DNA of 64,000 nt from Iphione sp. A-MEVVRFRX5 (taxonomy: Eukaryota): the NCBI GenBank assembly GCA_976226885.1, contig OZ320321.1, positions 15,748,001 through 15,812,000 on the forward strand, read 5' to 3'. The position numbers and the translations under genes were made by a program. Shown here in pieces: positions 144-17,800 of the stretch. The first letter of the stretch is position 1. Each line of letters opens with the position of its first letter. The notes under the pieces are model-generated. The model was not told the DNA's origin. It was given only the letters and a program-made list of their open reading frames with translations, and did not search any database.

Positions 144-180
144 AGTAGTGTATAGTGAGCAACCCTAAGACACAGGTTTG
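144..180 (+). repeat. Left terminal inverted repeat (37 bp)
   Basis: agtagtgtatagtgagcaaccctaagacacaggtttg matches the reverse complement of 21794-21830 at 34/37 positions. Confidence 0.93.
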
Positions 181-270
181 TAAGTCACATGACTGGTCAC
201 ATGACCGCTCTGACTGGTCACATGTCCGATCAGATGACCGGAAGTCACGTGATTAGTCATGTGACTAGAA
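181..270. promoter_or_regulatory. Left subterminal array of GTCAC(A/G)TGAC E-box-like palindromes with a CCGGAAGT ETS-like site
   Basis: At least five GTCACATG/GTCACGTG-type motifs; TGACCGGAAGTCACGTGA (235-252) recurs inverted at the right end (21767-21784). The regulatory role is inferred. Confidence 0.55.
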
Positions 271-3313: not shown

Positions 3314-3448
3314 CTGAAATATATAATGTATAGTCAGTTAGTAGTGCAGTGTAATTAGCTCATTTATAGCAAGTATTTGGAGTATATATATATATATATA
3401 CATATCAATTGAGCAAACTAGATAATATATATGATGTTTATACTCAAG

Positions 3449-3676
3449 NNNNNNNNNNNNNNNNNNNNNNNNNNNNNNNNNNNNNNNNNNNNNNNNNNNN
3501 NNNNNNNNNNNNNNNNNNNNNNNNNNNNNNNNNNNNNNNNNNNNNNNNNNNNNNNNNNNNNNNNNNNNNNNNNNNNNNNNNNNNNNNNNNNNNNNNNNNN
3601 NNNNNNNNNNNNNNNNNNNNNNNNNNNNNNNNNNNNNNNNNNNNNNNNNNNNNNNNNNNNNNNNNNNNNNNNNNNN
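3449..3676. other. Assembly gap (N run)
   Basis: Run of n. Confidence 1.
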
Positions 3677-6183
3677 GAAGTGAACGTCTCGGGGGGCAAC
3701 CGCTTACTCGCCCATGGTGAAGATGGTGGATGGGATTTGTGGGAGGATCAAGCAGTGCGGTGTCAGATGAAGTAGAGGATAAGCTGTCTCGCCTCGGACG
3801 ACGGGAAGTGGGCGTAGAAGGCGTCGATTTGGAAGTTGGAATATCATCCTGGAGTGATTGACGCCTTGGTCGTAACTGATAAGGACAGAGAGTTGCAGTA
3901 TCCGAGACTGTAGATGAAATACTAGATCGTCTTTTACCACGGGCAGTTTTCAATGATGGGGTAGATGATGATGAGGAAGATGCTCCTTCCTGTATAGGGC
4001 AGTTTTTATGGTGTAAATGTTTGTGGGGAGTAGAAGTAGATCTCTCATTGCTAGGCCAAGTTTCATCTGATGGTACGTCATCGTAAAAATCTGTGGTAAC
4101 TGTTAAAGGTGGTACTTTTTTCATGACTTCTCTGATGCGCTCAATAATTGACTTTTCCATAACTGGCATTGGGGTTGGAAAAGTATTTGGTGTAGCACTT
4201 TCACTTTCATACGTGATGTCATCATATGAATCTTCATCCATGTCCTTGGGTGGTGTCCCTAGAACTGCTCTCATTTCTTTAATAACTGAAGATGAAATAG
4301 GTGGTGGTGGAATAGGGAATGTATCTCTTGGAAAAGAATTAGTTGCACTCCTCGTTGAAGTAAATTCATCCCTGTTAGGTGTATCTTTAAAAAATAGCGG
4401 TGGCACTTCCATGTTTTCAGTAGTTGTTGCTTTGCTTTCATTATCATATTTAAACATGGAGGTGGAACACTGAGCAGAGGATGAAGTAGTAGTAGTAGCT
4501 GTAGTTTCAGATTTTGGTGAAGGCGTATCAATAAAATTAGATACTGGAAGACCACCTTGTGACGGTGAATCAACTGGAGAATCTGGTGGTGATAAAGTCG
4601 ATGGTGAGCAATGGGTGAGGGTATCCTCGTTAATGCTAGTTTTGGGCTTCTTCGACGGAGTGGCTCCCGCTGTTGAACATCCAGAAGATATCTCAGCTAA
4701 CAGGGTGTGAGAGCTAGATGAAGTGGAGTCAGTAGAGGTTGAAATTGCATTGGTGGGAGGAGGTTCAGGGGTTATTTCTGTTACCGGGTTATGGGAATCA
4801 GATGTGGTGGTTTCCATATCCTCGTGTACAGATTCATGAGATGATTCTGGAGCTGGAGAACGAGGATTAGTAGGTTCTGTGTTACTGAGTGGAAATTCGG
4901 AGAATAGTTCTGTATCTATAGGTTGAATATCGGTCTCAGATGCTATTCTTGACAACAACTCCATCAAGGGAACTATAGTAGTCTCATCGTTGGAAGTGAC
5001 ATCAGTTTCTCTGAGGGTTGAGCGTAATTTTGATAATACATCTGAACTTGCGTTGTGAGATGAACTATCAGTAGCTGTTATTTCAGAATTGGAATAGTGT
5101 GCTCTGGTGGATGATGATGATGATGCTTCATTCTCGCTATCCATAGTTGCGGTGCGGGGTGTTGACGAGGAAGGGGTGGCTGATGGTGGTGGTGGTGGTG
5201 GTGGTGGTGGTGCTGTTGGACGCAGTGAGGTTAATGCTGAGCATGATGGTTTTACTTCAACTGGAGTAGAGCAGTGAAGTGGTCTGGCAGGTGCTGTTTC
5301 TTTTCTAATCTTTTTAGATAATGCAGCTGAGGCAGTCAATGATGTCTTTCCTTGCATACTTAAATCCACATCAGAGGGGAGCGGGTGGCTTGGGTGACAA
5401 AGGTCTGGTCGAAGTGCCCGCCTGGAGTTTGGTCTATAGACGAGCGAGTCACTGCTGGAGAAGGGTGCTGTTGCGGAAATATGAGAAATAGGGCTGGAAG
5501 AGGAGGAGGTAGAAGAGTTAAGAGTGGTAGAATTTGAAAATGGGGGGTCAATATAACTAGCACTAGTCAACCCACCTGGATTGGACATTAAATCAGAGAA
5601 TGGTGGTGGAATACCACACTTTTGATGGGATTCTTTATTAGATACGGTTTCGAATATTAGAGAACGTGGCAATAGGTGAGGAGGGCGGCCTTTTGGTGTT
5701 TGGGGTACAAATGGTGCTTTAATTTTCGGGGGAAAATCGACATCGTCACTTTCACAAGTACAATTTATTTTTTTACTTTTGGAGATTGGTGATGAACTTT
5801 TATGGTGGGGTTTCATAACCATGACAGTATCTGAAAAGTGGACACTAGGGCATTCATTTTTTGGGGTACGAGTAGGAGAGAACATAGAAGTGGTTTTAGA
5901 TGTATGACCATTTGAAATAGCGTTGGGGTGGGAAATAGTATTCAGCGGGATAGATTCAAATTCTGAAGAAGTATCAGATTTTAGGGACAAGGAAGCAACA
6001 GCACAAGAAGCAGTAGCAGTAGCAGCAATTGGGATGCGTGGCAGTGGTAAATTAACAATGGTAGCATCAGCAACATCATCAGCAGTAGCATTGGAGGAGG
6101 AGGAGACACTCACAGAAGCGTTGGGTGAGGGCGATGATGATATTGATGATGAAGTCAAAGCGGGGCCATCAAATCCAGTACGG
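3677..6183 (-). CDS. Large Ser/Thr/Pro-rich disordered coding exon (>835 codons, runs into the gap); probable exon 2 of the LRR-TM gene at 6641-7399
   Basis: Uninterrupted ORF whose first Met is about 120 codons in; polypyrimidine-CCTTATAG acceptor at 6184; poly-Pro and repeated RRxS motifs (KRRSSISSTVSDTA, RPRRQSL, RPRRDSLSSTSSDTA). Confidence 0.8.
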
Positions 6184-6640: not shown

Positions 6641-7399
6641 TTACGCTTGGTCCGGAATTGGGGGAGGAGAAGGTGTGTCAGCACGGTAGAATGTGGTGTC
6701 ATTGTTTCTCTCGGAAAGTAGCCATCGAGTATAAATTTTATAGCGCATACAAGGATACGCAATGGATGCACTAACAAGTAGCAATAAGATGGTGCCAGTT
6801 ATTATAAACATAGCCAAGTCTGAAGACGGGAGTGAGGCTGAAGAGCGTGCAACTTCGTCGTTACCTCCACTGTTGGATAAAGTGTGGGTTAAAGGGGTGG
6901 AATCCGCCAAATGTCCATGTTTGGTTACTATCATAATAGTCCGAGTGATTTTAATTCCTCTACTTTCCGAATTGAATGATCCGCGGGAGGATTGAGTTGG
7001 GCTCTGCTCACTGACAGTCGTATGTTCCAAAGACAGTTGTTCATTAATGACACTATCTGGGGGAGTAGAGTCTGTGCTTACGAATGAAATCTTGAACATT
7101 TCTACTCCATTAAGACTTATAGCTTCAGCTTGCAATAAGTCTGGGAAGACACGCTGGAGTTGTTGACGTAAAGATGCTTCATTATCCACTATGTAGGGAG
7201 CGTTCAGGTACAAGTAATAGTATCCCGGATAAGTGCGACGTAGTGAAAAAAAATAGCTAGTTGCTAGTGAGTTGCAATGTATGTTGTTTTTCAAACATAT
7301 GCATCGTCTGCACAGTTGAGTATGGCATGATACTGGTTGGGTTGATATCATCAAAAACAAGACAATTCCAATGAATATCCAACCTTTAAAGCGTAACAT
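6641..7399 (-). CDS. Type I membrane protein A: signal peptide, LRRNT-like CxxCxC-x6-C cap, degenerate LRR, Ser/Thr stalk, TM helix
   Basis: MLRFKGWIFIGIVLFLMIS.. (signal); CRRCICLKNNIHC; YYYLYLNAPYI; TM LAMFIITGTILLLLVSASIAYPCM. The stop codon lies inside a GTAAGT donor (6644-6639) that is in phase with the acceptor at 6184. Confidence 0.8.
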   Translation of the reverse strand: MLRFKGWIFIGIVLFLMISTQPVSCHTQLCRRCICLKNNIHCNSLATSYFFSLRRTYPGYYYLYLNAPYIVDNEASLRQQLQRVFPDLLQAEAISLNGVEMFKISFVSTDSTPPDSVINEQLSLEHTTVSEQSPTQSSRGSFNSESRGIKITRTIMIVTKHGHLADSTPLTHTLSNSGGNDEVARSSASLPSSDLAMFIITGTILLLLVSASIAYPCMRYKIYTRWLLSERNNDTTFYRADTPSPPPIPDQA

Positions 7400-7939
7400 T
7401 GTGAGCGTCGTTCTTCCGGATGAAGTTCAAAATGAAACCGGGTAACACAGGCACGTGTTGTTTCGCATAAAAAAGACAGCTCTAATAACCGCGTAACAAT
7501 CCAAGATACCTATGAGAACTTGTATCTGGATTAATTAATCGATGAAAAAGTCAGGGAGTATCGAGTGACCAAGTCCGAGAATAATCCGAAAATCCAGTTA
7601 GCAGTATCAACATAAGCGGATATACTCGCAAGTAACAAGCTCCATCCAATAGCAGACGGTCGTGTCACTAGGATCACTATCACGCAACTGTCCCAGAAAG
7701 AGAGAGAGTAACGAGTTTTCAGGGTAATTTAAGAGTCTGTGTCGGGAAAGATGAGAAGAGGAAGGGGGTGGGGTAATGATAAGATCGGGCAATAAATAAA
7801 TTAATCCCACCAGTCCCTAGATAAAAGAGATGCCGCGAAGTAATCCTATCTCAAATAGGGAGAGAGGGGATAGTTGAAGCACATTACTACACAGGTTGGG
7901 AAGTGAACCAGTCGTAAAAGTGAAGGACTCTAAGGCAGG

Positions 7940-8753
7940 ATGGAAACGAGAATTATTACAATACTACTTCTGTTAGTTACTTTGGATTCACTCAACACCA
8001 TGGGAGAGATCTTTAGATGTCCAATCAGGTGTGGAAGATGTCAACCTCCTCTGATGAGATGTCGAGGGGATATTGACCCATTTACTGTGAGATTTGCTCC
8101 TGATGAGCTCATGGAAAGGACTAGACTGGGGTGGCTGTCGGATACAAGAAGTAAGAGAAGAAATCTTTCAAACATTTAAGAACGTAAAATTTATTGATAT
8201 TAGACATCAAGGAGTTGTTCTTAAATGTGAGACATTGTCACGAGTGCCATCTCATGTAAGAATTTTTTCAGATTGTAAAAGCTTATCAACAGAAAGTCCC
8301 ACTCCATTATTGACTACCATTTCTTCTCACTCGAAGCACCCGACCATACTATCTTCCATTCGCGCTATAACTACATTGATTGAGTCGACTGTCACCCAAA
8401 GAAAATTTGTCACTACGAAATCTTCTTTATCATCTCAGACAACGATTAATAATCCATCCCCAGATGGACAATTGACGTCTCTTCCTCCTTCAAAGTGCAG
8501 TAGTTGTACAAGTAGTGAAAATAACTTTTTATCAACAATTAAGATTGATTTACCATCTACTTCAACCAAAGGGAGCGTGGATAAGACAAACGGAGAGAAC
8601 AAAGGCATGGGGAAAAGTAAAGTTAGCTCAAATGAGAGCAATAAAGGATTTGGGATACCAGTACTAGCAGGGGCAGTTTCAGTGGCTGTATGCTCCGTGA
8701 TAGCGCTAGGTGTAACATGTTGGTACTGCATTACTAAATGCAAACAGTTTTGA
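7940..8753 (+). pseudogene. Type I membrane protein B: signal peptide, LRRNT, LRR, Ser/Thr stalk, TM; split by a +1 frameshift near 8118
   Basis: ORF 7940-8179 (signal peptide, CPIRCGRCQPPLMRC) and ORF 8094-8753 (LDWGGCRIQEVREEIFQTFKNVKFIDIRHQ, stalk, TM VLAGAVSVAVCSVIALGVTCWYC) fuse into 270 aa if one G is removed from GAAAGGA. Confidence 0.75.
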
Positions 8754-9414: not shown

Positions 9415-9908
9415 TTAAAAATACTTATAATTCATTACAACAGCACGGTCATTAGCTCCCAAATTTGAATCAAATGACAAAATAAAATCGTTAAATGATT
9501 CCCCTCTCATCCTTGCATGAATGTAAGCAAGGCAATAGTGTCCACATACAGGTTTGTCACCTTGTATCCTAGTGACAGAATAAGTGTAACTGGGAGAATT
9601 AGCGACCAAAAAATCACGAATGCGCGCACGATGATTTTCAGGCGGCATCCCTAATGAATCAAAAACTCCCCAGGTAAACGATCTCCATTCGCTTTCAGAG
9701 GTGGGAGTAGTATGACAATCCAGTGTAGTCCCGCACAGTTCAAACAATCAGTATTAACAACAAACACATATGGCGATTCCTTTGGAGGGGGAAGCGGGGT
9801 TGATGGTAAAACCTCAAATGATTCAACCCATGGCGTATCCGTGAATTCAGCTAAACGTCTTTGTATATCATTGCTTGATAGTGGAGAATCAAGTGGTGAC
9901 GGTGACAT
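9415..9908 (-). pseudogene. PRO: Adenain-like cysteine maturation protease, 1-nt deletion frameshift at 9661-9665
   Basis: N-half VNTD...GLHW (catalytic His); C-half FDSLG...Q...CGHYC (Asp, Gln, Cys). Adding one T to the T5 run restores GEFFDSLG and a 164-aa ORF. Confidence 0.92.
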
Positions 9909-11274
9909 TACGTGCTAAGTCAATGTTCATAAGAGCTGGAAATGCCCCAAATATCACAGCAACACACGACTCTGGAAGTCCAGAAGCAAACTTGACTGTC
10001 AAACGAGTATTTCCTTTTCGAAGAGGGGACAACAGCTCTCGCTCTCGACACTTGTCTAAATCAAAGAGAAAGAGTGTATATCCATTGACATAGTCATCCT
10101 CTGTGATGTCTGGCAATTGTCGTTGATTCCATGTGGGGAACGAATCAAATAATGCAACATATGGTGTTGCTATTTTCCTAGTACCAAAATCAGGTTGAAA
10201 AGGACGACCAGGTTTTGACTCACCATCAACTTCGAATGCAATATAGTTGGCGTTAAAATGACGAAAATAATAAGGATTCTTCTGAGGGTGGCCAGAGTAA
10301 GCAGATGCTTCAACTAATCCCATTACAATTCTAAGAGGAACACGGTCTTGAAAAATATTTTCAACCACAAACTCGAAACTATTTGAAGAAAGTGTAAATG
10401 AACGGTAATCACTCCTTATGAAAGGGTATAAGGCTGGTGATTTTTCTAATTGAGTGCGATGACGTAGAATAAGTCCTTCATGAATACGAGCAAATGTAAC
10501 AAGTAAAACAGCACGCACCAATTTCAAGTGATAAGTCCTAGATGTACGAGTAGGAGGGGCAGGGGTAGGAGGAGAAGTGCCCCCTTCTTTGTCTCCACCT
10601 TCACCAGCAGTAGTTGCACCCGAAGTTGACAAAGGAGGGTACATGAGACGAAAAACATCTGTTGCTGGATACAGTTTGACATTAATGGGGACACCGTTGA
10701 GAATGGGTCTCTGCTGATCACTAATTCCGGAAAAGAGACGAGTCATCAATCGTGCCACTCCTCCACCAGCAGTTTTAGCAGAACGCTTTCCTACTGCGGA
10801 ATTCCGTATAGGGTCATCCATAAACAAATTGTCGTCTTTAGCAAAACCACAAATTTTCATCCACCCCATCTCATCAGACAGTCCAGCATGTAGTAGGGTA
10901 TCAAACATTACTTTATATGGATATAGACCTCCGACACCGGTATTCATGACGGTATGCTGAAGCGATAACTCCATGCGCTGAAACATAGTTGATGCTCCCA
11001 TATTGATGAAGCCCACTTTATCCACCGATCCAATTGGTGTTTTATCCTCTTTTAAAATTTGTAAATCAACCCGCATACGAGTCTTGTGTAGTATAATATA
11101 ATCAAGTGAATCATTGGGTATATTGAATTCCACAACACTATCTCCTGTCACATCCCCGATGGGAAGAAACTCTTTAACATAGAATTCTCTAATACCACTC
11201 TGAGTAGGTGGAACTTGAAACAAGTCGAGGTCAAGCCCGAATCCATCATCAGAATCTTGAAGGACGTGTGTCAT
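9889..11274 (-). CDS. MCP: Major capsid protein (double jelly-roll, Polinton PY/hexon)
   Basis: 461 aa; LDLF..PPTQ..I, VEFNIP...DYI.L, NPY.F.HF, F..DG...P, GYTLF.FDL motifs typical of Polinton MCP; located between the protease and core genes. Confidence 0.93.
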   Translation of the reverse strand: MTHVLQDSDDGFGLDLDLFQVPPTQSGIREFYVKEFLPIGDVTGDSVVEFNIPNDSLDYIILHKTRMRVDLQILKEDKTPIGSVDKVGFINMGASTMFQRMELSLQHTVMNTGVGGLYPYKVMFDTLLHAGLSDEMGWMKICGFAKDDNLFMDDPIRNSAVGKRSAKTAGGGVARLMTRLFSGISDQQRPILNGVPINVKLYPATDVFRLMYPPLSTSGATTAGEGGDKEGGTSPPTPAPPTRTSRTYHLKLVRAVLLVTFARIHEGLILRHRTQLEKSPALYPFIRSDYRSFTLSSNSFEFVVENIFQDRVPLRIVMGLVEASAYSGHPQKNPYYFRHFNANYIAFEVDGESKPGRPFQPDFGTRKIATPYVALFDSFPTWNQRQLPDITEDDYVNGYTLFLFDLDKCRERELLSPLRKGNTRLTVKFASGLPESCVAVIFGAFPALMNIDLARNVTVTT

Positions 11275-11279
11275 ATTTA

Positions 11280-11666
11280 CTAATAGCGCCGAAACTTTCG
11301 TGGCTTTGTAGTTGTTTTCCTCACTGTCTTTTTCTTCTTTGTCTTCTTATTATTTTCTTTCTTCTTCTGTTTTGTAGTGTTGTTTTTTTTCCTCCTTTTT
11401 ATTGGGCGAGCGTTTGAGGTCGACGCTGACTTTGATGGACGTTTCCGAATAGTGGGGGCTCTGCGAACTCCACTACTAATACTAATGGTGGCATTGGGTG
11501 ATGGAGATGGAGACACGTTTTTAGTGAGGTTGGCCTTGGCTCGTTCCACTGATTGCTCAGTAGGTGTCACTAGTTTCAAGGGAGGACCACGTCCCACATA
11601 GTGAGAACGTTTACGCGCTGTGTGAGTAAAAGCATCTGTGCGAGGAACGTAAGGCACGTAGTTCAT
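11280..11666 (-). CDS. Small highly basic protein, putative virion core/DNA-condensing protein
   Basis: 128 aa, Lys/Arg-rich C-half; VTPTEQSVERAK motif; sits between mCP and MCP. Function is inferred. Confidence 0.7.
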   Translation of the reverse strand: MNYVPYVPRTDAFTHTARKRSHYVGRGPPLKLVTPTEQSVERAKANLTKNVSPSPSPNATISISSGVRRAPTIRKRPSKSASTSNARPIKRRKKNNTTKQKKKENNKKTKKKKTVRKTTTKPRKFRRY

Positions 11667-12106
11667 CCCAACCTAGATCGTGAACTTGATGGTCTCAAAT
11701 GAAGCACAACACGTCTGATATGTGGAGTCTCTTCTTCGTTACTGGCGGAGATAATGGAGCTGTTATCATCAGACAGAGCGACGCAGTAGACCCTAAAGCA
11801 TTTAATCCGACTTGTTCCTACTGGCATATACCAGGGATTTTTAAATTCCACAGAAGACAGACAAATCACTTGTAACACTGGTCGTAATTCATTAGCAAGC
11901 ATATAGTTGCCTTCAACCAAATCAGAACAAAGGACAACATCGCGGTTATTTCGTAGGCGAGTAGAAAAATATGCCTCCACCACAGCACATTCCCACTCAC
12001 CAACTAAATCAATTGGGCGTCCAAGTTCAACCACAAAATCATTAGGTGTGTTGTTTGGATGAGTGGCCTTACTCATTAAAGGTGTAGCAAGTAGATAGAC
12101 ATCCAT
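11663..12106 (-). CDS. mCP: Minor capsid protein (penton, single jelly-roll, PX), short form
   Basis: HPNNTPNDFVVELGRPIDLVGEWECAVVE, VLCSDLVE, LRPVL, F.NPWYMPV motifs of Polinton mCP. Confidence 0.88.
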   Translation of the reverse strand: MDVYLLATPLMSKATHPNNTPNDFVVELGRPIDLVGEWECAVVEAYFSTRLRNNRDVVLCSDLVEGNYMLANELRPVLQVICLSSVEFKNPWYMPVGTSRIKCFRVYCVALSDDNSSIISASNEEETPHIRRVVLHLRPSSSRSRLG

Positions 12107-12113
12107 CTCTCAG

Positions 12114-13232
12114 TCAGTTAGAGGGTGTACCAATTTTTTGCAACTCGTCTGCGCTAATCCATGAGTCATAGTGAACAGGCCACCCAAGCCAACGTACAAC
12201 ATATCCACTGATACCGCCCAGCTTTTTCTTGCGTAATACCTTCTCAATTTTGTACTGAGTTTTATCATTCACATGAACCTTAATTAACTCCTCTTCGTAA
12301 AATCGTCCATCTATTTCCTCATTATTCCAGGATTTAATACTATACTGTGCCACACCATGTCGTCGTGTACGCCCAATAATAACAAAAAGTTCATGTGTCC
12401 ATTGTTCGTCATAAGCTCGAGTAAAAGGTTGTCGAAAACGAGCCAAACGAACCACATCACCCACTTCAAAACGATAGGGTTTGTAAGTACTGCTGCTATT
12501 TTTGGTGTGAGAATATTGTCTATTCCACAGTTCAACTTTGTCTATATCATCTGAAGTGGCCAAGGCAGGAGTTGTTCCAATTGATCGATGATGACGATGG
12601 TTATAAGCATCAGTAAAAGAACTTAGTTGATCAACCCAAACATGCGTCTGATGGTGATACATGTGGCGCATTAAACGTGTTTTAAGTGTTTTAATAAATC
12701 TCTCAGCGTAATTGGCTTTAACTTCATTCCTAGTAACAACATGTTTAACATCCATCTGTTTTAAATAACGTTCCATCCATCGATTGTTAAATTCGCTTCC
12801 ACCATCTGTTCTTAACACCCGACACACATGTCCATCTTCTTCATTCTCCATCACCGATCGAAGGGCAGTTAGAGTTTCTTTGGCTTTTAAACTCTTTAAA
12901 GGTCTGCTCCATGCGTAACGAGTGAAGATATCAATAACAACTAAGAAATGTCCTATACCATTGTTTGAAGAACGCCAAGCAGTCATGTTAGCAGTATCTG
13001 CATCGAATTGATCAAATTTATCTGAGACCACAACCCGTGGTCGCTTCACAGTTCGAGTGGTGTGAGATGGAGCAAATAGGGTGTAAGTCTCTTGACCATG
13101 TAACCATTCTTTAATCTGTTGTAAGGTGTATGGTCGTCCTGCCATCCTAGTATGATGGTACAACTCTCTAGCACCTCCAAATGCAGCAGGATGATGGGGA
13201 TCATAATAAATTTTACTCAAATACTTGTCCAT
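12114..13232 (-). CDS. INT: Retroviral-like (rve, DDE) integrase with C-terminal chromodomain
   Basis: DADTA..., LVVIDIFTRYAW, LRTDGGSEF, ANYAERFIKTLK, YNHRHHRSIGTTP; chromodomain YKIEKVL...VRWLGW..YDSWI. Confidence 0.97.
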   Translation of the reverse strand: MDKYLSKIYYDPHHPAAFGGARELYHHTRMAGRPYTLQQIKEWLHGQETYTLFAPSHTTRTVKRPRVVVSDKFDQFDADTANMTAWRSSNNGIGHFLVVIDIFTRYAWSRPLKSLKAKETLTALRSVMENEEDGHVCRVLRTDGGSEFNNRWMERYLKQMDVKHVVTRNEVKANYAERFIKTLKTRLMRHMYHHQTHVWVDQLSSFTDAYNHRHHRSIGTTPALATSDDIDKVELWNRQYSHTKNSSSTYKPYRFEVGDVVRLARFRQPFTRAYDEQWTHELFVIIGRTRRHGVAQYSIKSWNNEEIDGRFYEEELIKVHVNDKTQYKIEKVLRKKKLGGISGYVVRWLGWPVHYDSWISADELQKIGTPSN

Positions 13233-13600: not shown

Positions 13601-14094
13601 GATGGTGTAATCAGATTATCATCATCATCACATCCATCCCCTTCTTCTCTTTCGTCTTCTTCTTCTTCTTCTTCTTCTTCTTTGTCCTCCTCTTCTTCAC
13701 TCACTTTCTCTTTTGGAGATGATAATAGTGGAGGAGTATATATTGGTGAATCTTCCGTCAACCTCCACAACTCGAGCTCAACTGATCTAAATAAATGAAG
13801 TAGTTGCCGATAATATCTGCTAACAAGCGCCGCCCTAGATCTATATGATAACTTGCGATTTGCTAGTTTTGAGAGTAGCCCCCGTCGCTTCTCAGCATAC
13901 TTTTTTACTTCTTCTTTTACTGGCAACAGCAATATATTATGAACAATCTCTGCAAGCGCTTCTATCTGTCCTGGTGTTGCTGTATCAAATAATGCTTCAA
14001 CTTGCTTGCGACTAGGGCTAGCCAAGATGAGACGAATAAAATTGGAATGTTTCTTTAATAAGAAACTTGTCATTCTATTTTTTGTACCAAACAA
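13597..14094 (-). CDS. Small helical Maverick protein with acidic tail, unknown function
   Basis: 165 aa; ATPGQIEALAEIVHNILL..LLSKLA motif of the kind I recall next to Polinton ATPases; start/stop overlaps with flanking genes. Confidence 0.7.
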   Translation of the reverse strand: MFGTKNRMTSFLLKKHSNFIRLILASPSRKQVEALFDTATPGQIEALAEIVHNILLLPVKEEVKKYAEKRRGLLSKLANRKLSYRSRAALVSRYYRQLLHLFRSVELELWRLTEDSPIYTPPLLSSPKEKVSEEEEDKEEEEEEEEDEREEGDGCDDDDNLITPS

Positions 14095-14707
14095 GCGGCT
14101 GTTCTTCTCCCGGAAAGATGTGACTAATCAACTTTACATCCGTGAAGTTGTGAGGATGTAAATCTATCACTAGATATCCATATGGCTCTTTAGTTGCATC
14201 TTCGTAAGCTGCCTTTACTTCCACCATTCCAAGTTGACTACTGAGTCGACTGATTTGGTGAACGTCCCGCGGATTCCTAAATAGTACCAGGTATTGCGAA
14301 TTCAGAGCAATGGACTTTGCACATTTGCCTTGACAGAATGGATTCTGAATAAGATTAATAACTGTTATACGATCTTGGTGTGATCCTCGAGTGAATAAAT
14401 CCCGAACTTTTTCATTCTGCACAACGTCGTCCATTAAATCATCTATTATCAGTAATGTACCTTTAGGATGTTTTACATTGTCCACATTGACTCCTTCACG
14501 AAATTCGACTTCCCCCATCAACTCTTCAAAAATAGATTGCCACACACCATAGCAATAAATTATCCTTTCCGGAATAGGAGGTTGAAACATCTGTTGTCTG
14601 TTTTTTATGAGACGTCTGACAAAATATGTTTTTCCGGAAGACATAGCCCCGCTCACCATGATTGTTGATGGAGTAGCGAACGTATATTCCGGTATCTCAA
14701 TCTCCAT
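14075..14707 (-). CDS. ATP: A32/FtsK-like DNA packaging ATPase
   Basis: Walker A GAMSSGKT, Walker B LLIIDDLM, RGSH, LIQN, R..ALNSQYLVLFRNPRD. Confidence 0.96.
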   Translation of the reverse strand: MEIEIPEYTFATPSTIMVSGAMSSGKTYFVRRLIKNRQQMFQPPIPERIIYCYGVWQSIFEELMGEVEFREGVNVDNVKHPKGTLLIIDDLMDDVVQNEKVRDLFTRGSHQDRITVINLIQNPFCQGKCAKSIALNSQYLVLFRNPRDVHQISRLSSQLGMVEVKAAYEDATKEPYGYLVIDLHPHNFTDVKLISHIFPGEEQPLVWYKK

Positions 14708-14812: not shown

Positions 14813-17800
14813 CTAATCCATCTCACATCTGATATCATCCCATATCTCTCCTAATCTATTTCTCCCCCGGAACTCTTCTGGTGATGATATCATCACCATT
14901 GACTCATCCATCCCAACCCCCCAATACTTGTCTTTATTAGCATATACAATGAGGTTGGTATGATTTAAGGCTGATGTCACAATATTCCCAAGTGCTCTTG
15001 CTTTTATTCGACTAACTTCTTTCATCACGTTGAAACGGACGCTGTCTCTCCATTCCTTTTCTTTCTTTATCATATTGGCATACATTGTGTATTCTGTCCT
15101 ATTCGTAGTTGATTTAATTGCTCGTCCTATTTCTTCTTCTTTGTGGTACTCCGCCATCCGATAAAGGAAGAGATGCTCTGCGGACACAAACCTGTCCCCC
15201 ATGTCACATTGGTAAAGAGGACTCAGAACATGCCAGGGATGACTGAATATGTAATAATCCCCCACTCCATTCTCCCATGGACACAGTGTTAATTGGAGTG
15301 GTGATGTGTGTACCCCATCATCATGAACTCTTCTTTTTGCATAAAAGTATGTGAACCCTTCTCGAGCCAATTCATATGTACACACCGTTCCCATCCATAC
15401 CCTAAAGCCAACATTCCGTCCTCCCTTACTTTGACGAGTCTGTAGTACACTTTCATATGTGTCTATCGGATCCACAACATAAGCTTTTGACACCCCCTTA
15501 CAACTCATTTTTATGGTAGTAGGGGATGTTTCTCTACTAGTCAGAACATAAGTCTTACTAGTCAAAGCAATGATTTTATCACCCTTGGCTTCTTCTTTCA
15601 TTATGCCGGGCACGCGTCGATCAAAACTGTTATGATGTGAACAACATTCTCTCATGAACCAACAAGGGTGTTTATTGTCATCACAGTTATCCATGATATC
15701 TTCTCGATATTTTCGTCGTCCTTCTTCCGTCATAGCCCCAACAATTGAAGTACTAGCCAATGCTATATAAGCACTGTCTGTGTCCATTGTCACATACTCA
15801 AATTGTGATCGTTCCATCAGCTTATCAATGCAATCATAATAAAATGATAGCATGACCATCTTGGCATACTGAAGGATCGAAAACCCCACGTAGACAGGCA
15901 TATCTAATGTTATACGGTTTTTGGCCATTTCCACTTCATACATCCCATTAAGCTCCGTCATAGCTCTGAATCGAGGAGAATTCACCGCTGCTGCTGTTTG
16001 GTTTGGGGTTGTAAAGTACTTCACCGCATGCTGCTTTTCTTTTTGCATGATAATGCCTCCGTACGCAGAATTCTCGATCAACTTCATTGTATCACCAATA
16101 ATAGCCATATCTGGATCACAGTCTCCTCTTCTTCTCGCCTCTGTTACATCATCAACGAACGACTTGAAACATTCCCTAGGAATGAACTCAATTACTTGAT
16201 GAACTTTGGTGACGACAAGACCATGTTCTAGGTACCATTTCAACAAAGGTGACATTATTAGCGTTTTTCTCGCACTCATTCCTCCAATCAATAATCTTCT
16301 CGGTCTCTTGGAAAGGTGTTGTTCTGTTACATATTGCCTCATATGTTCTCCAATATCCTCAAAGTTGACGGTAGTATTTCCAAATAGAGGACACATCTCC
16401 CCGAAGTATGCTGAAGGAGTTACACTACGTTCTTTTCCTTTTGGCCAGCTATTTGGAACATGTATATCTACTTCTAGCGCACCAAAGAACAAATCAGCAC
16501 ATACTCCTTCTAAGATCTTTTCTTCTGTCACTTTCCCCCTATGTATCCTGCTAAAAGTCAGAGTAAATTGTTCTGCATGATTTCTTAGTTTACTATTTAC
16601 TACAAGCATGGAAGAGAATTTACATTCTTCCATCGCCACTAAAGTATAGCCTTGCTGCTCAATGAACTTCTTCCTAATTGCTGTACGTATTTCTCGTCTC
16701 TTTCGCTCTTTTTCATTTGTCTTCCCCTTCATACATTCATGCCCATGAAAGTAACATCCGTTAAATTCAAATACCAACTTCAGCGGCAATGCAATACCAT
16801 CTACTCGATATGGTCCAATCCAAACTTCACCCTCATACCTGTTATGAGCGTGAGCAATATGGATGCCTCGTGCTTTCGCTTCCCACTCCATCCAAATCAC
16901 ACTTGTGGTACCCAATGGAATTTTCTCTCTCTTGAAGCCAGTCTGAACCCTACGTCTAACATATGTACCTGTCGCATGTTTCTTCCCAATACAGCTCAGG
17001 TACAATGAATTAGCGTCAAGTCCCAGAATTGACTGACATTTATTTGGGGAATCTCTGATGAATGTCACATCTTTTTCATGAGCCCTTGTGAAAACAATAG
17101 CTGGTCCTCCGACTATATTCTTCCTAAATATCTGATATATATCTTCTTCCGATGCTCCAAATGTTGGAAATCTAGCACCATTGCTCAAAGCAGATTGAAA
17201 TAATAATCTTCTCGCAACACCAGGGGCAGAAACAGCTATTTTAAAAACGTCCATACCCCTATCAAAATAAAATTGTTGCAGTCGAATCACTCCTTCTACA
17301 AAGGGCCCAACATCCAATTTATTATAATATATTAAAAGATCCCGTAATGTCTGCATTCCTTCTCTCTCCCACGTTTTCTCCAAATCTTCGTATTCTTCTC
17401 TAGAAATATTGGTTCCCCTTAATGAGGAGTAAAATGCTTCATGATCCGGTAATTGTGATTCTGATAATCTTTCAGGTCCATCTAGGTATTCGTAACAGAA
17501 AACACCCTTTCCAACTTCTACGCCATACGCCTTTAGAAACTTGGCGTAAGAAACACCCGGAGTTAAATACTGTGCCACATCCAGAAACTTCAGCTCTCCA
17601 TTGTCAACTGATATATATGTGTTATTTCTTTTAATGACGAAGAGTTCATTTTTTTCTTTTTTTAGTCGGCTGAGCAAGACCCCCTTCATTACATTCATGT
17701 CATACTTTCCTGAATTGAACCCCAAAACAGGTAAAGTATTGACATACTGCATGAACCTTTCTGTTACTCTTTTCAGACGCTTCATCATTTGTGTATGTGG

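Follow-up and report, generated by a model that had tools for sequence, protein, structure and literature searches.

The protein-primed family B DNA polymerase (pPolB) of a full-length Maverick/Polinton in the genome of Iphione sp. ends in a NADAR (YbiA-fold) domain, and we find this fusion to be real, conserved, widespread and apparently unreported. Judged from its sequence, the domain is probably catalytically inactive in this element and likely without eraser activity. The explanation to which we give about an even chance, from sequence comparisons and a predicted model, is that a NADAR fold lacking the essential catalytic residues serves as an inactive, selected, thumb-docked structural or partner-binding extension of the polymerase and not as an ADP-ribose eraser.

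A NADAR domain at the end of a Maverick polymerase

The window, by which we mean the whole 64,000-nucleotide stretch analysed (positions 15,748,001 to 15,812,000 of contig OZ320321.1), contains a full-length Maverick/Polinton of 21.7 kb at positions 144-21830. Elements of this kind are marked by terminal inverted repeats beginning AGTAGT and by a 6-bp target duplication; here the duplication reads CACACA on both sides, the right copy lying in a low-complexity CA repeat. Besides the termini, pPolB, an rve integrase, capsid, packaging ATPase (a weak match) and protease genes are all present:

144..205, + strand, left terminal inverted repeat, starting AGTAGT, with the 6-bp target duplication upstream at 138-143
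9415..9914, - strand, what we take from its motifs to be an adenain-like protease gene, split over two frames in this copy
9889..11274, - strand, major capsid protein of the double jelly-roll type (top Atlas cluster score 0.98; PF21738 on 30% of cluster members)
11663..12106, - strand, probable minor capsid protein, assigned from size and position
12114..13232, - strand, retroviral-type integrase with chromodomain (rve E 6.6e-9; Chromo E 9e-6)
14075..14707, - strand, A32/FtsK-like packaging ATPase (weak Pfam match, Pox_A32 E 0.04)
14813..19555, - strand, pPolB of 1580 residues in a single stop-free frame (PF03175 weak, E 1.7e-4)
14822..15262, - strand, C-terminal NADAR domain of the polymerase, residues 1432-1578 (PF08719; fold matches to 8BAU and 2B3W; predicted inactive)
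15263..15292, - strand, thumb-NADAR junction of about 10 residues, with a Pro kept in 66/69 other fused proteins
21766..21830, - strand, right terminal inverted repeat, followed by the 6-bp duplication at 21831-21836

Among the close family members listed, the protease frame is split in the window copy only. Two divergent accessory genes inside the element (6641-7399, - strand, and 7934-8753, + strand, the latter possibly starting in an upstream frame) encode membrane-protein-like products with a hydrophobic N-terminus, a Cys-rich cap, a Ser/Thr-rich stalk and a C-terminal hydrophobic segment, and neither product matched Pfam; the same is true of a Ser/Thr/Pro-rich frame of 813 codons at 3444-5885 (-). 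A further open frame of 1075 codons at 44864-48091 (-), in a GC-rich and strongly skewed stretch, has no Pfam match and is probably repeat-derived.

Exonuclease and polymerase motifs are present in the 1580-residue frame, whose domain order we take, from its motifs, to be C2H2 fingers, a vOTU-like Cys/His region, Exo I-III, Pol A-C and NADAR; the same motifs presumably make this a group-2 Polinton pPolB. The polymerase domain also carries an inserted PD-(D/E)xK nuclease motif at 16739-16810 (-), which we assume to be Vsr-like.

An earlier note on this DNA, made from the sequence alone, had read NADAR motifs in order in the last ~150 residues of the polymerase and had proposed Pfam and structure searches as checks. 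All of the motifs lie where it put them (14816-15260, the 3' end of the frame), and both searches agree with it. Pfam NADAR (PF08719) matched residues 1453-1578 of the polymerase with 48.4 bits (E 1.6e-12), and the isolated tail with 54.2 bits, against a curated cut-off of 35.1. The AlphaFold model of the tail, built on an alignment that included other NADARs, had a pLDDT of 92.5, and the YbiA fold, a helical core with small sheets, is present in the predicted models. When the tail model was compared with the PDB, 8BAU was the best match (E 3.4e-5, TM 0.76), followed by E. coli YbiA 2B3W (TM 0.67), with no other match at E < 3. A phmmer search of PDB sequences with the single NADAR domain gave no match. 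In a 961-residue model (residues 620-1580), built on an alignment of fused proteins only, phi29 polymerase was the best PDB match (E 1.6e-9) and 8BAU was found again (E 1.2e-4).

The fusion is repeated in the host genome and kept by selection

Of 1720 candidates in the 1.18-Gb host genome, 150 were scored. Each of them matched, with an identity of 51-100%, so that the genome has at least 150 matches. By hand count, about 97 of these 150 fall within stop-free frames 1500 residues or more in length, which rules out a frameshift or an assembly artefact as the source of the fusion. In 20/20 diverse copies that were fetched, NADAR stands directly behind the thumb. Eighteen matches are 97-100% identical, indicating that the Maverick family of the window spread recently. 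No NADAR was found at 20 loci of other Maverick lineages in the same genome, where Mavericks form at least three deep lineages rich in open polymerase frames, only one of them carrying NADAR.

Synonymous sites proved saturated (pS 0.78) over 21 full-length copies, with a pN of 0.22 for NADAR and 0.13 for the polymerase core; in the three pairs with estimable dS (1.0-1.4), dN/dS is ~0.10-0.16 for NADAR versus 0.03-0.07 for the core. These low values against saturated synonymous sites show that the NADAR domain is kept by selection, somewhat looser than that on the polymerase. They also bear on the idea that the domain is a decaying passenger, once useful and now drifting, kept only as truncation is slow. 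The domain does evolve at roughly twice the rate of the core, and degenerate, shortened and lost versions occur across the clade; however, the dN/dS values, together with more than 50 near-invariant NADAR positions over 16 families, largely refute drift for the host genome, and we regard this explanation as scarcely credible.

The fusion recurs in public data

A survey of pPolB C-termini, also proposed in the earlier note, was made with a thumb + NADAR profile against 1.84 billion representatives, which gave 1840 matches at E <= 0.001. Relatives were taken as the best 150 of these and 7 proteins from a further profile search. In 86 of the 157 the thumb is followed by NADAR, and among 21 more, whose tails are longer or match weakly, 17 scored against a fused-NADAR profile (E <= 4e-5; reversed controls E >= 0.99). 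Thus the fusion recurs, with NADAR carried by 103 of these 157 related proteins, a proportion that is not a frequency among Mavericks since the query profile favours fusions. When 22 of the polymerase proteins were scanned separately with Pfam, 16 gave a NADAR match at E <= 0.001. Some fused relatives lie on contigs of 0.5-3.5 Mb, and JGI automatic names call some fused proteins YbiA-like. In several lineages the domain is down to ~120 residues and, by inspection, its middle helices are missing; several of these short tails are without the KxxGR helix region. Tails of this length were still recognised by the profile as remnants of NADAR. Much of the part that binds ADP-ribose has apparently gone from some lineages.

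Word-index searches for homologues, with the NADAR domain alone as query, found no relative, and only profile searches reached them, which may be why the fusion has been overlooked so far. A scan of IMG/VR also gave no relative, and a scan of JGI metagenomes gave 7 loci, none of which matched thumb and NADAR together.

The catalytic residues are replaced and part of the pocket is retained

Residues were mapped onto 8BAU via the canonical NADAR of the host genome itself, and were read in 39 copies from this genome (own copies: that of the window, and 38 from a set of 39 further loci) and in 77 other fusions with tails of at least 135 residues, 9 shorter ones being dropped. In the window the key positions are:

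15176..15178, - strand, Glu1460, equivalent to E43 of 8BAU (E88 of DarG1), retained; Glu in 39/39 own copies and 29/77 other fusions
15155..15157, - strand, Met1467, in place of the essential Lys (K50/K95); Met in 38 and Val in 1 of 39 own copies
14942..14944, - strand, Tyr1538, in place of the essential last-strand acid (E125/D171); Tyr in 38 and Phe in 1 of 39 own copies
14921..14932, - strand, Asp1542-Trp1545 of the DxxWG motif (D130 and W133 equivalents), retained in the residue table

Schuller et al. (PMC11543638; this and the papers below are cited for the available parts of their text) list E43, K50, K75, R79, Y84, D86, W89, R93, E125, D130 and W133 as the contacts of NADAR with ADP-ribose. 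In the DarG1 NADAR, K95A and D171A/N abolished efficient hydrolysis, and E88A, at the position of E43, had a minor effect in vitro and gave no rescue in cells (PMC11543638). In a Streptomyces NADAR even E167D gave a dead enzyme (PMC12945103), and phage AdfN required both Glu and Lys (PMC11257639). The last-strand acid of active YbiA-type NADARs is Glu, with Asp in DarG1 and His in phage NADARs.

Measured against these residues, the earlier note was right that the Lys of QAxK reads Met (Met1467) and that a conserved Glu and Asp are kept; these, however, are the equivalents of E43 and D130 and not the essential last-strand acid, whose replacement by Tyr1538 it had overlooked. The losses extend further. 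The K75 position has Lys in none of the 39 own copies, the R79 position holds Asn, Asp, Glu or Ala, and the Y84 loop is also gone from the window domain. An Arg beside Met1467 is freely variable among the own copies and was ruled out as a stand-in for the missing Lys; likewise, no acid lies near the lost E125 position in 39/39 own copies, ruling out a shifted acid. The full triad is present in 0/39 own copies and 3/77 other fusions, against 22/25 NADARs of a LINE family in the host genome, 80/80 bacterial and 50/50 viral NADARs, the last two proportions being inflated since these controls were retrieved with motifs that include the catalytic residues. As the essential Lys and the last-strand acid are replaced and the pyrophosphate-shielding K75 and R79 are lost, with the dispensable Glu kept, catalysis is predicted to be absent from the window domain.

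The proposal of the earlier note, an eraser of guanine ADP-ribosylation tethered to the replisome and directed against a DNA-modification defence of the host, is therefore not supported for this element, where the essential Lys and acid are replaced in 39/39 copies. The fold and family are correct for such an enzyme, phage NADARs do act in this way against DarT1 (PMC11257639, in its available text), and the relatives P0013 and P0014 are fully intact; against it, none of the own copies examined retains either of the two residues that mutagenesis showed to be essential, and the adjacent Arg is variable. A Scabin/pierisin-type transferase (PF22596) gave no match in the host genome, a search that weighs little as it detected no positive control and introns could hide such a gene, and none of the Maverick ORFs scanned with Pfam was found to encode a DNA ADP-ribosyltransferase. 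We consider an active eraser in this element very improbable.

Other fusions vary more than the own copies. E43 is kept in 29 and absent in 48 of the 77, K50 is kept in 31 (K or R in 34), and position 125 is Glu in 2 and Tyr or Phe in 40 (Tyr 30, Phe 10), with Asn, Val and others elsewhere. The catalytic set is complete in P0013 and P0014 and reads Glu-Lys-His in P0031, and a few relatives, such as the intact-site P0013 and P0014, are predicted to be still active.

Tyr is thus the commonest residue at the catalytic position (38/39 own, 30/77 others), and Tyr nucleophiles occur in other glycosidases. The kept Glu and the new Tyr could accordingly form another catalytic pair in a remodelled enzyme, acting on an N-glycosidic or end-linked substrate of protein-primed replication. 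Phe replaces the Tyr in one own family and in the 10 other fusions, however, with Asn, Val and others in the rest, and the pairing Glu is missing from 48/77, so that we hold such an enzyme to be improbable.

A different use of the site would be as a reader or decoy, in which NADAR would bind, without cutting, a ribose-like ligand or bases carrying ADP-ribose or some other ribosyl group, and would protect the polymerase or signal the lesion to it. The own families are ~50-70% identical, yet E1460, W1502, D1542 and W1545, whose equivalents in 8BAU contact ADP-ribose, show little or no variation (E43, W89 and D130 equivalents in 39/39 own copies, W133 in 38/39), and the newly invariant H1471, R1486 and R1563 surround these kept contacts; the active-looking LINE NADARs of the same genome suggest that a ligand exists in the host. 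Against binding of this kind, the basic pyrophosphate contacts K50, K75 and R79 are lost, with R79 becoming Asp/Glu in 14/39, E43 is found in only 29/77 other fusions, and shortened forms exist. We judge a reader or decoy to be rather unlikely.

A proposed thumb-docked extension of the polymerase

The remaining explanation, an inactive extension of the polymerase, fits the distribution of conserved residues, which across fusions mostly belong to the fold core (L1444, F1456, W1502, G1548, G1564, N1566 and G1569). The 961-residue fused model has a pLDDT > 90 across the junction and a pTM of 0.86. In a toy calculation the pTM ceiling for an uncoupled domain was roughly 0.72-0.85; a value at or above it modestly favours fixed docking of NADAR on the thumb, as far as one global score and a toy calculation go. 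The mean net charge of the domain is -2, a mildly acidic value that makes naked DNA a less likely partner than a protein or another part of the same molecule. Candidate contacts are the duplex as it leaves the thumb, the terminal protein and other viral or host proteins. Nematode SNA-3 domain 1 provides a precedent for a NADAR without YbiA activity residues (PMC9303266, available text).

Three observations count against an inactive extension: the near-invariant E1460, W1502, D1542 and W1545 fit a kept ligand pocket; NADAR-less polymerases are nested in the clade, meaning that not every polymerase needs the module; and K50 is kept in 31/77 other fusions. With these in mind, we propose that an active NADAR, from a subfamily also used by retrotransposon ORF1 proteins, may have been captured once, anciently, at the polymerase C-terminus, where it would have packed onto the thumb and become part of the polymerase surface. 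In most lineages catalysis would then have decayed, the fold remaining of use as a surface with a structural or partner-binding role, and the domain would have been shortened in some lineages and lost completely in others.

A probable single origin of the fusion

A tree of 50 NADAR sequences, 20 of them fused domains (LG+G4, 165 columns), placed the fused NADARs in one group (98/96), and a 127-sequence FastTree agreed; both are to be read with long branches, few columns, narrow outgroup sampling and sequences ascertained by one profile in mind. The pPolB-NADAR fusion thus probably arose once. Among fused NADARs, P0013 and P0014 branch first, weakly (90/73 for the rest), and as these two have intact sites, the fusion may at first have been an active eraser; their early split is not firm, since their polymerase fragments do not pair with each other in the polymerase tree. 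In the latter (FastTree, with low inner support and some short proteins that may be fragments), polymerases without NADAR branch from within the fused ones, a pattern suggestive of repeated loss of the domain.

Fused, LINE-borne and P0119 NADARs group together against canonical YbiA (100/98). A shared one-residue gap first hinted at direct descent from the LINE NADARs of the host genome; this origin is unsupported, as P0012-P0014 are without the gap and, in the trees, the fused domains do not fall within the LINE group. P0119 has 3 NADAR repeats and groups with mobile-element NADARs, and P0049, a large protein of red abalone, has 7.

NADARs elsewhere in the host genome

The host genome holds 4416 NADAR candidates, of which 150 were scored. 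Many belong to a very large LINE family whose ORF1 NADAR has the triad in 22/25 copies, with an endonuclease-reverse transcriptase frame downstream in 8/8 extended loci, 4 of them confirmed by Pfam. This family (L071-L078, e.g. L072:1811-7411) is abundant and diverse and has three frames: an ORF1 with a coiled coil, an RRM-like part and the C-terminal NADAR, a second, SGNH/GDSL-esterase-like frame with weak Pfam support, and the endonuclease-reverse transcriptase. From their motifs, we take the family to be CR1/L2-like and the ORF1 part to be RRM-like. This differs from the available text of PMC12477816, which places NADAR in Tx1 ORF1 and Gypsy Pol only. A single canonical YbiA-type NADAR is encoded in one open frame at L041:1360-2346 (176 bits); it is 50-62% identical to bacterial proteins and is possibly a horizontally acquired host gene.

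Taken more broadly, the clade of Maverick polymerases may go back to a single captured NADAR which was active and removed ADP-ribose that the host had placed on the template at the fork, as P0013 and P0014 would still do. The NADAR candidates of the host genome, which number in the thousands, most of them LINE-borne and, where examined, intact, might then reflect an undescribed nucleic-acid ADP-ribosylation defence against invertebrate mobile elements. We find this possible though doubtful, and a host ADP-ribosylation defence against Mavericks is something we infer.

What the fusion means

With this fusion the replication enzyme of a large clade of Mavericks gains a domain not reported before, and one polymerase offers a natural series from intact enzyme to pseudoenzyme, shortened remnant and loss. 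If the intact members are active, they would give direct evidence of animal hosts ADP-ribosylating Maverick DNA and a testable handle on what eukaryotic NADARs act on; if the structural reading alone is true, this would clearly be an enzyme fold that has become an accessory domain of a polymerase.

Comparison with known systems

The earlier note knew of no described pPolB-NADAR fusion, and we found no description in the literature either, although a mention is possible in supplements, Repbase or subscription papers; an apparent joint mention of NADAR and polinton proved to be an institute's name. The polymerase belongs to the same family as the Polinton/Maverick pPolB with its TP-vOTU-exonuclease-polymerase order (PMC11161782, available text), and the catalytic motifs are present here too. 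Accessory domains on pPolB are already known from the pPolB-helicase fusions of polinton-like viruses (PMC12721341, available text). NADAR is absent from the main text of both papers and of 10.64898/2026.10.13.758929.

With the YbiA-family hydrolases (Phytophthora nicotianae 8BAU, E. coli YbiA 2B3W and DarG1; PMC11543638, PMC11125620) the domain shares the fold, the motif order and E43/W89/D130/W133; it differs in that K50 is Met, E125 is Tyr, K75/R79/Y84 are lost and the domain is fused in frame to a DNA polymerase. NADARs are listed in phages, giant viruses and invertebrate RNA viruses (PMC9503650, available text), and the context of the family is further covered in PMC11125620, PMC9303266 and PMC7824862. 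AdfN (gp30.3) of T4-like phages is likewise a viral NADAR in a DNA virus, but it is a stand-alone, active counter-defence enzyme that needs Glu and Lys, whereas the Maverick domain is fused and without the Lys (PMC11257639). Neither YbiA nor phage NADARs, though active, rescue laboratory E. coli from DarT1 (PMC11125620), which makes such rescue a weak test of activity. Ectocarpus Gypsy Pol and oyster Tx1 ORF1 (PMC12477816), as well as polyproteins of invertebrate RNA viruses (PMC9503650), also have a NADAR beside the replication machinery of a mobile element; any action of these NADARs would be on RNA-based elements, and those on the LINEs of the host genome keep the triad. Nematode SNA-3 is a further case of animal NADARs recruited to a nucleic-acid machine, one of them lacking YbiA activity residues; it is, however, a cellular trans-splicing factor, and two of its NADAR domains need those residues (PMC9303266, in the available text).
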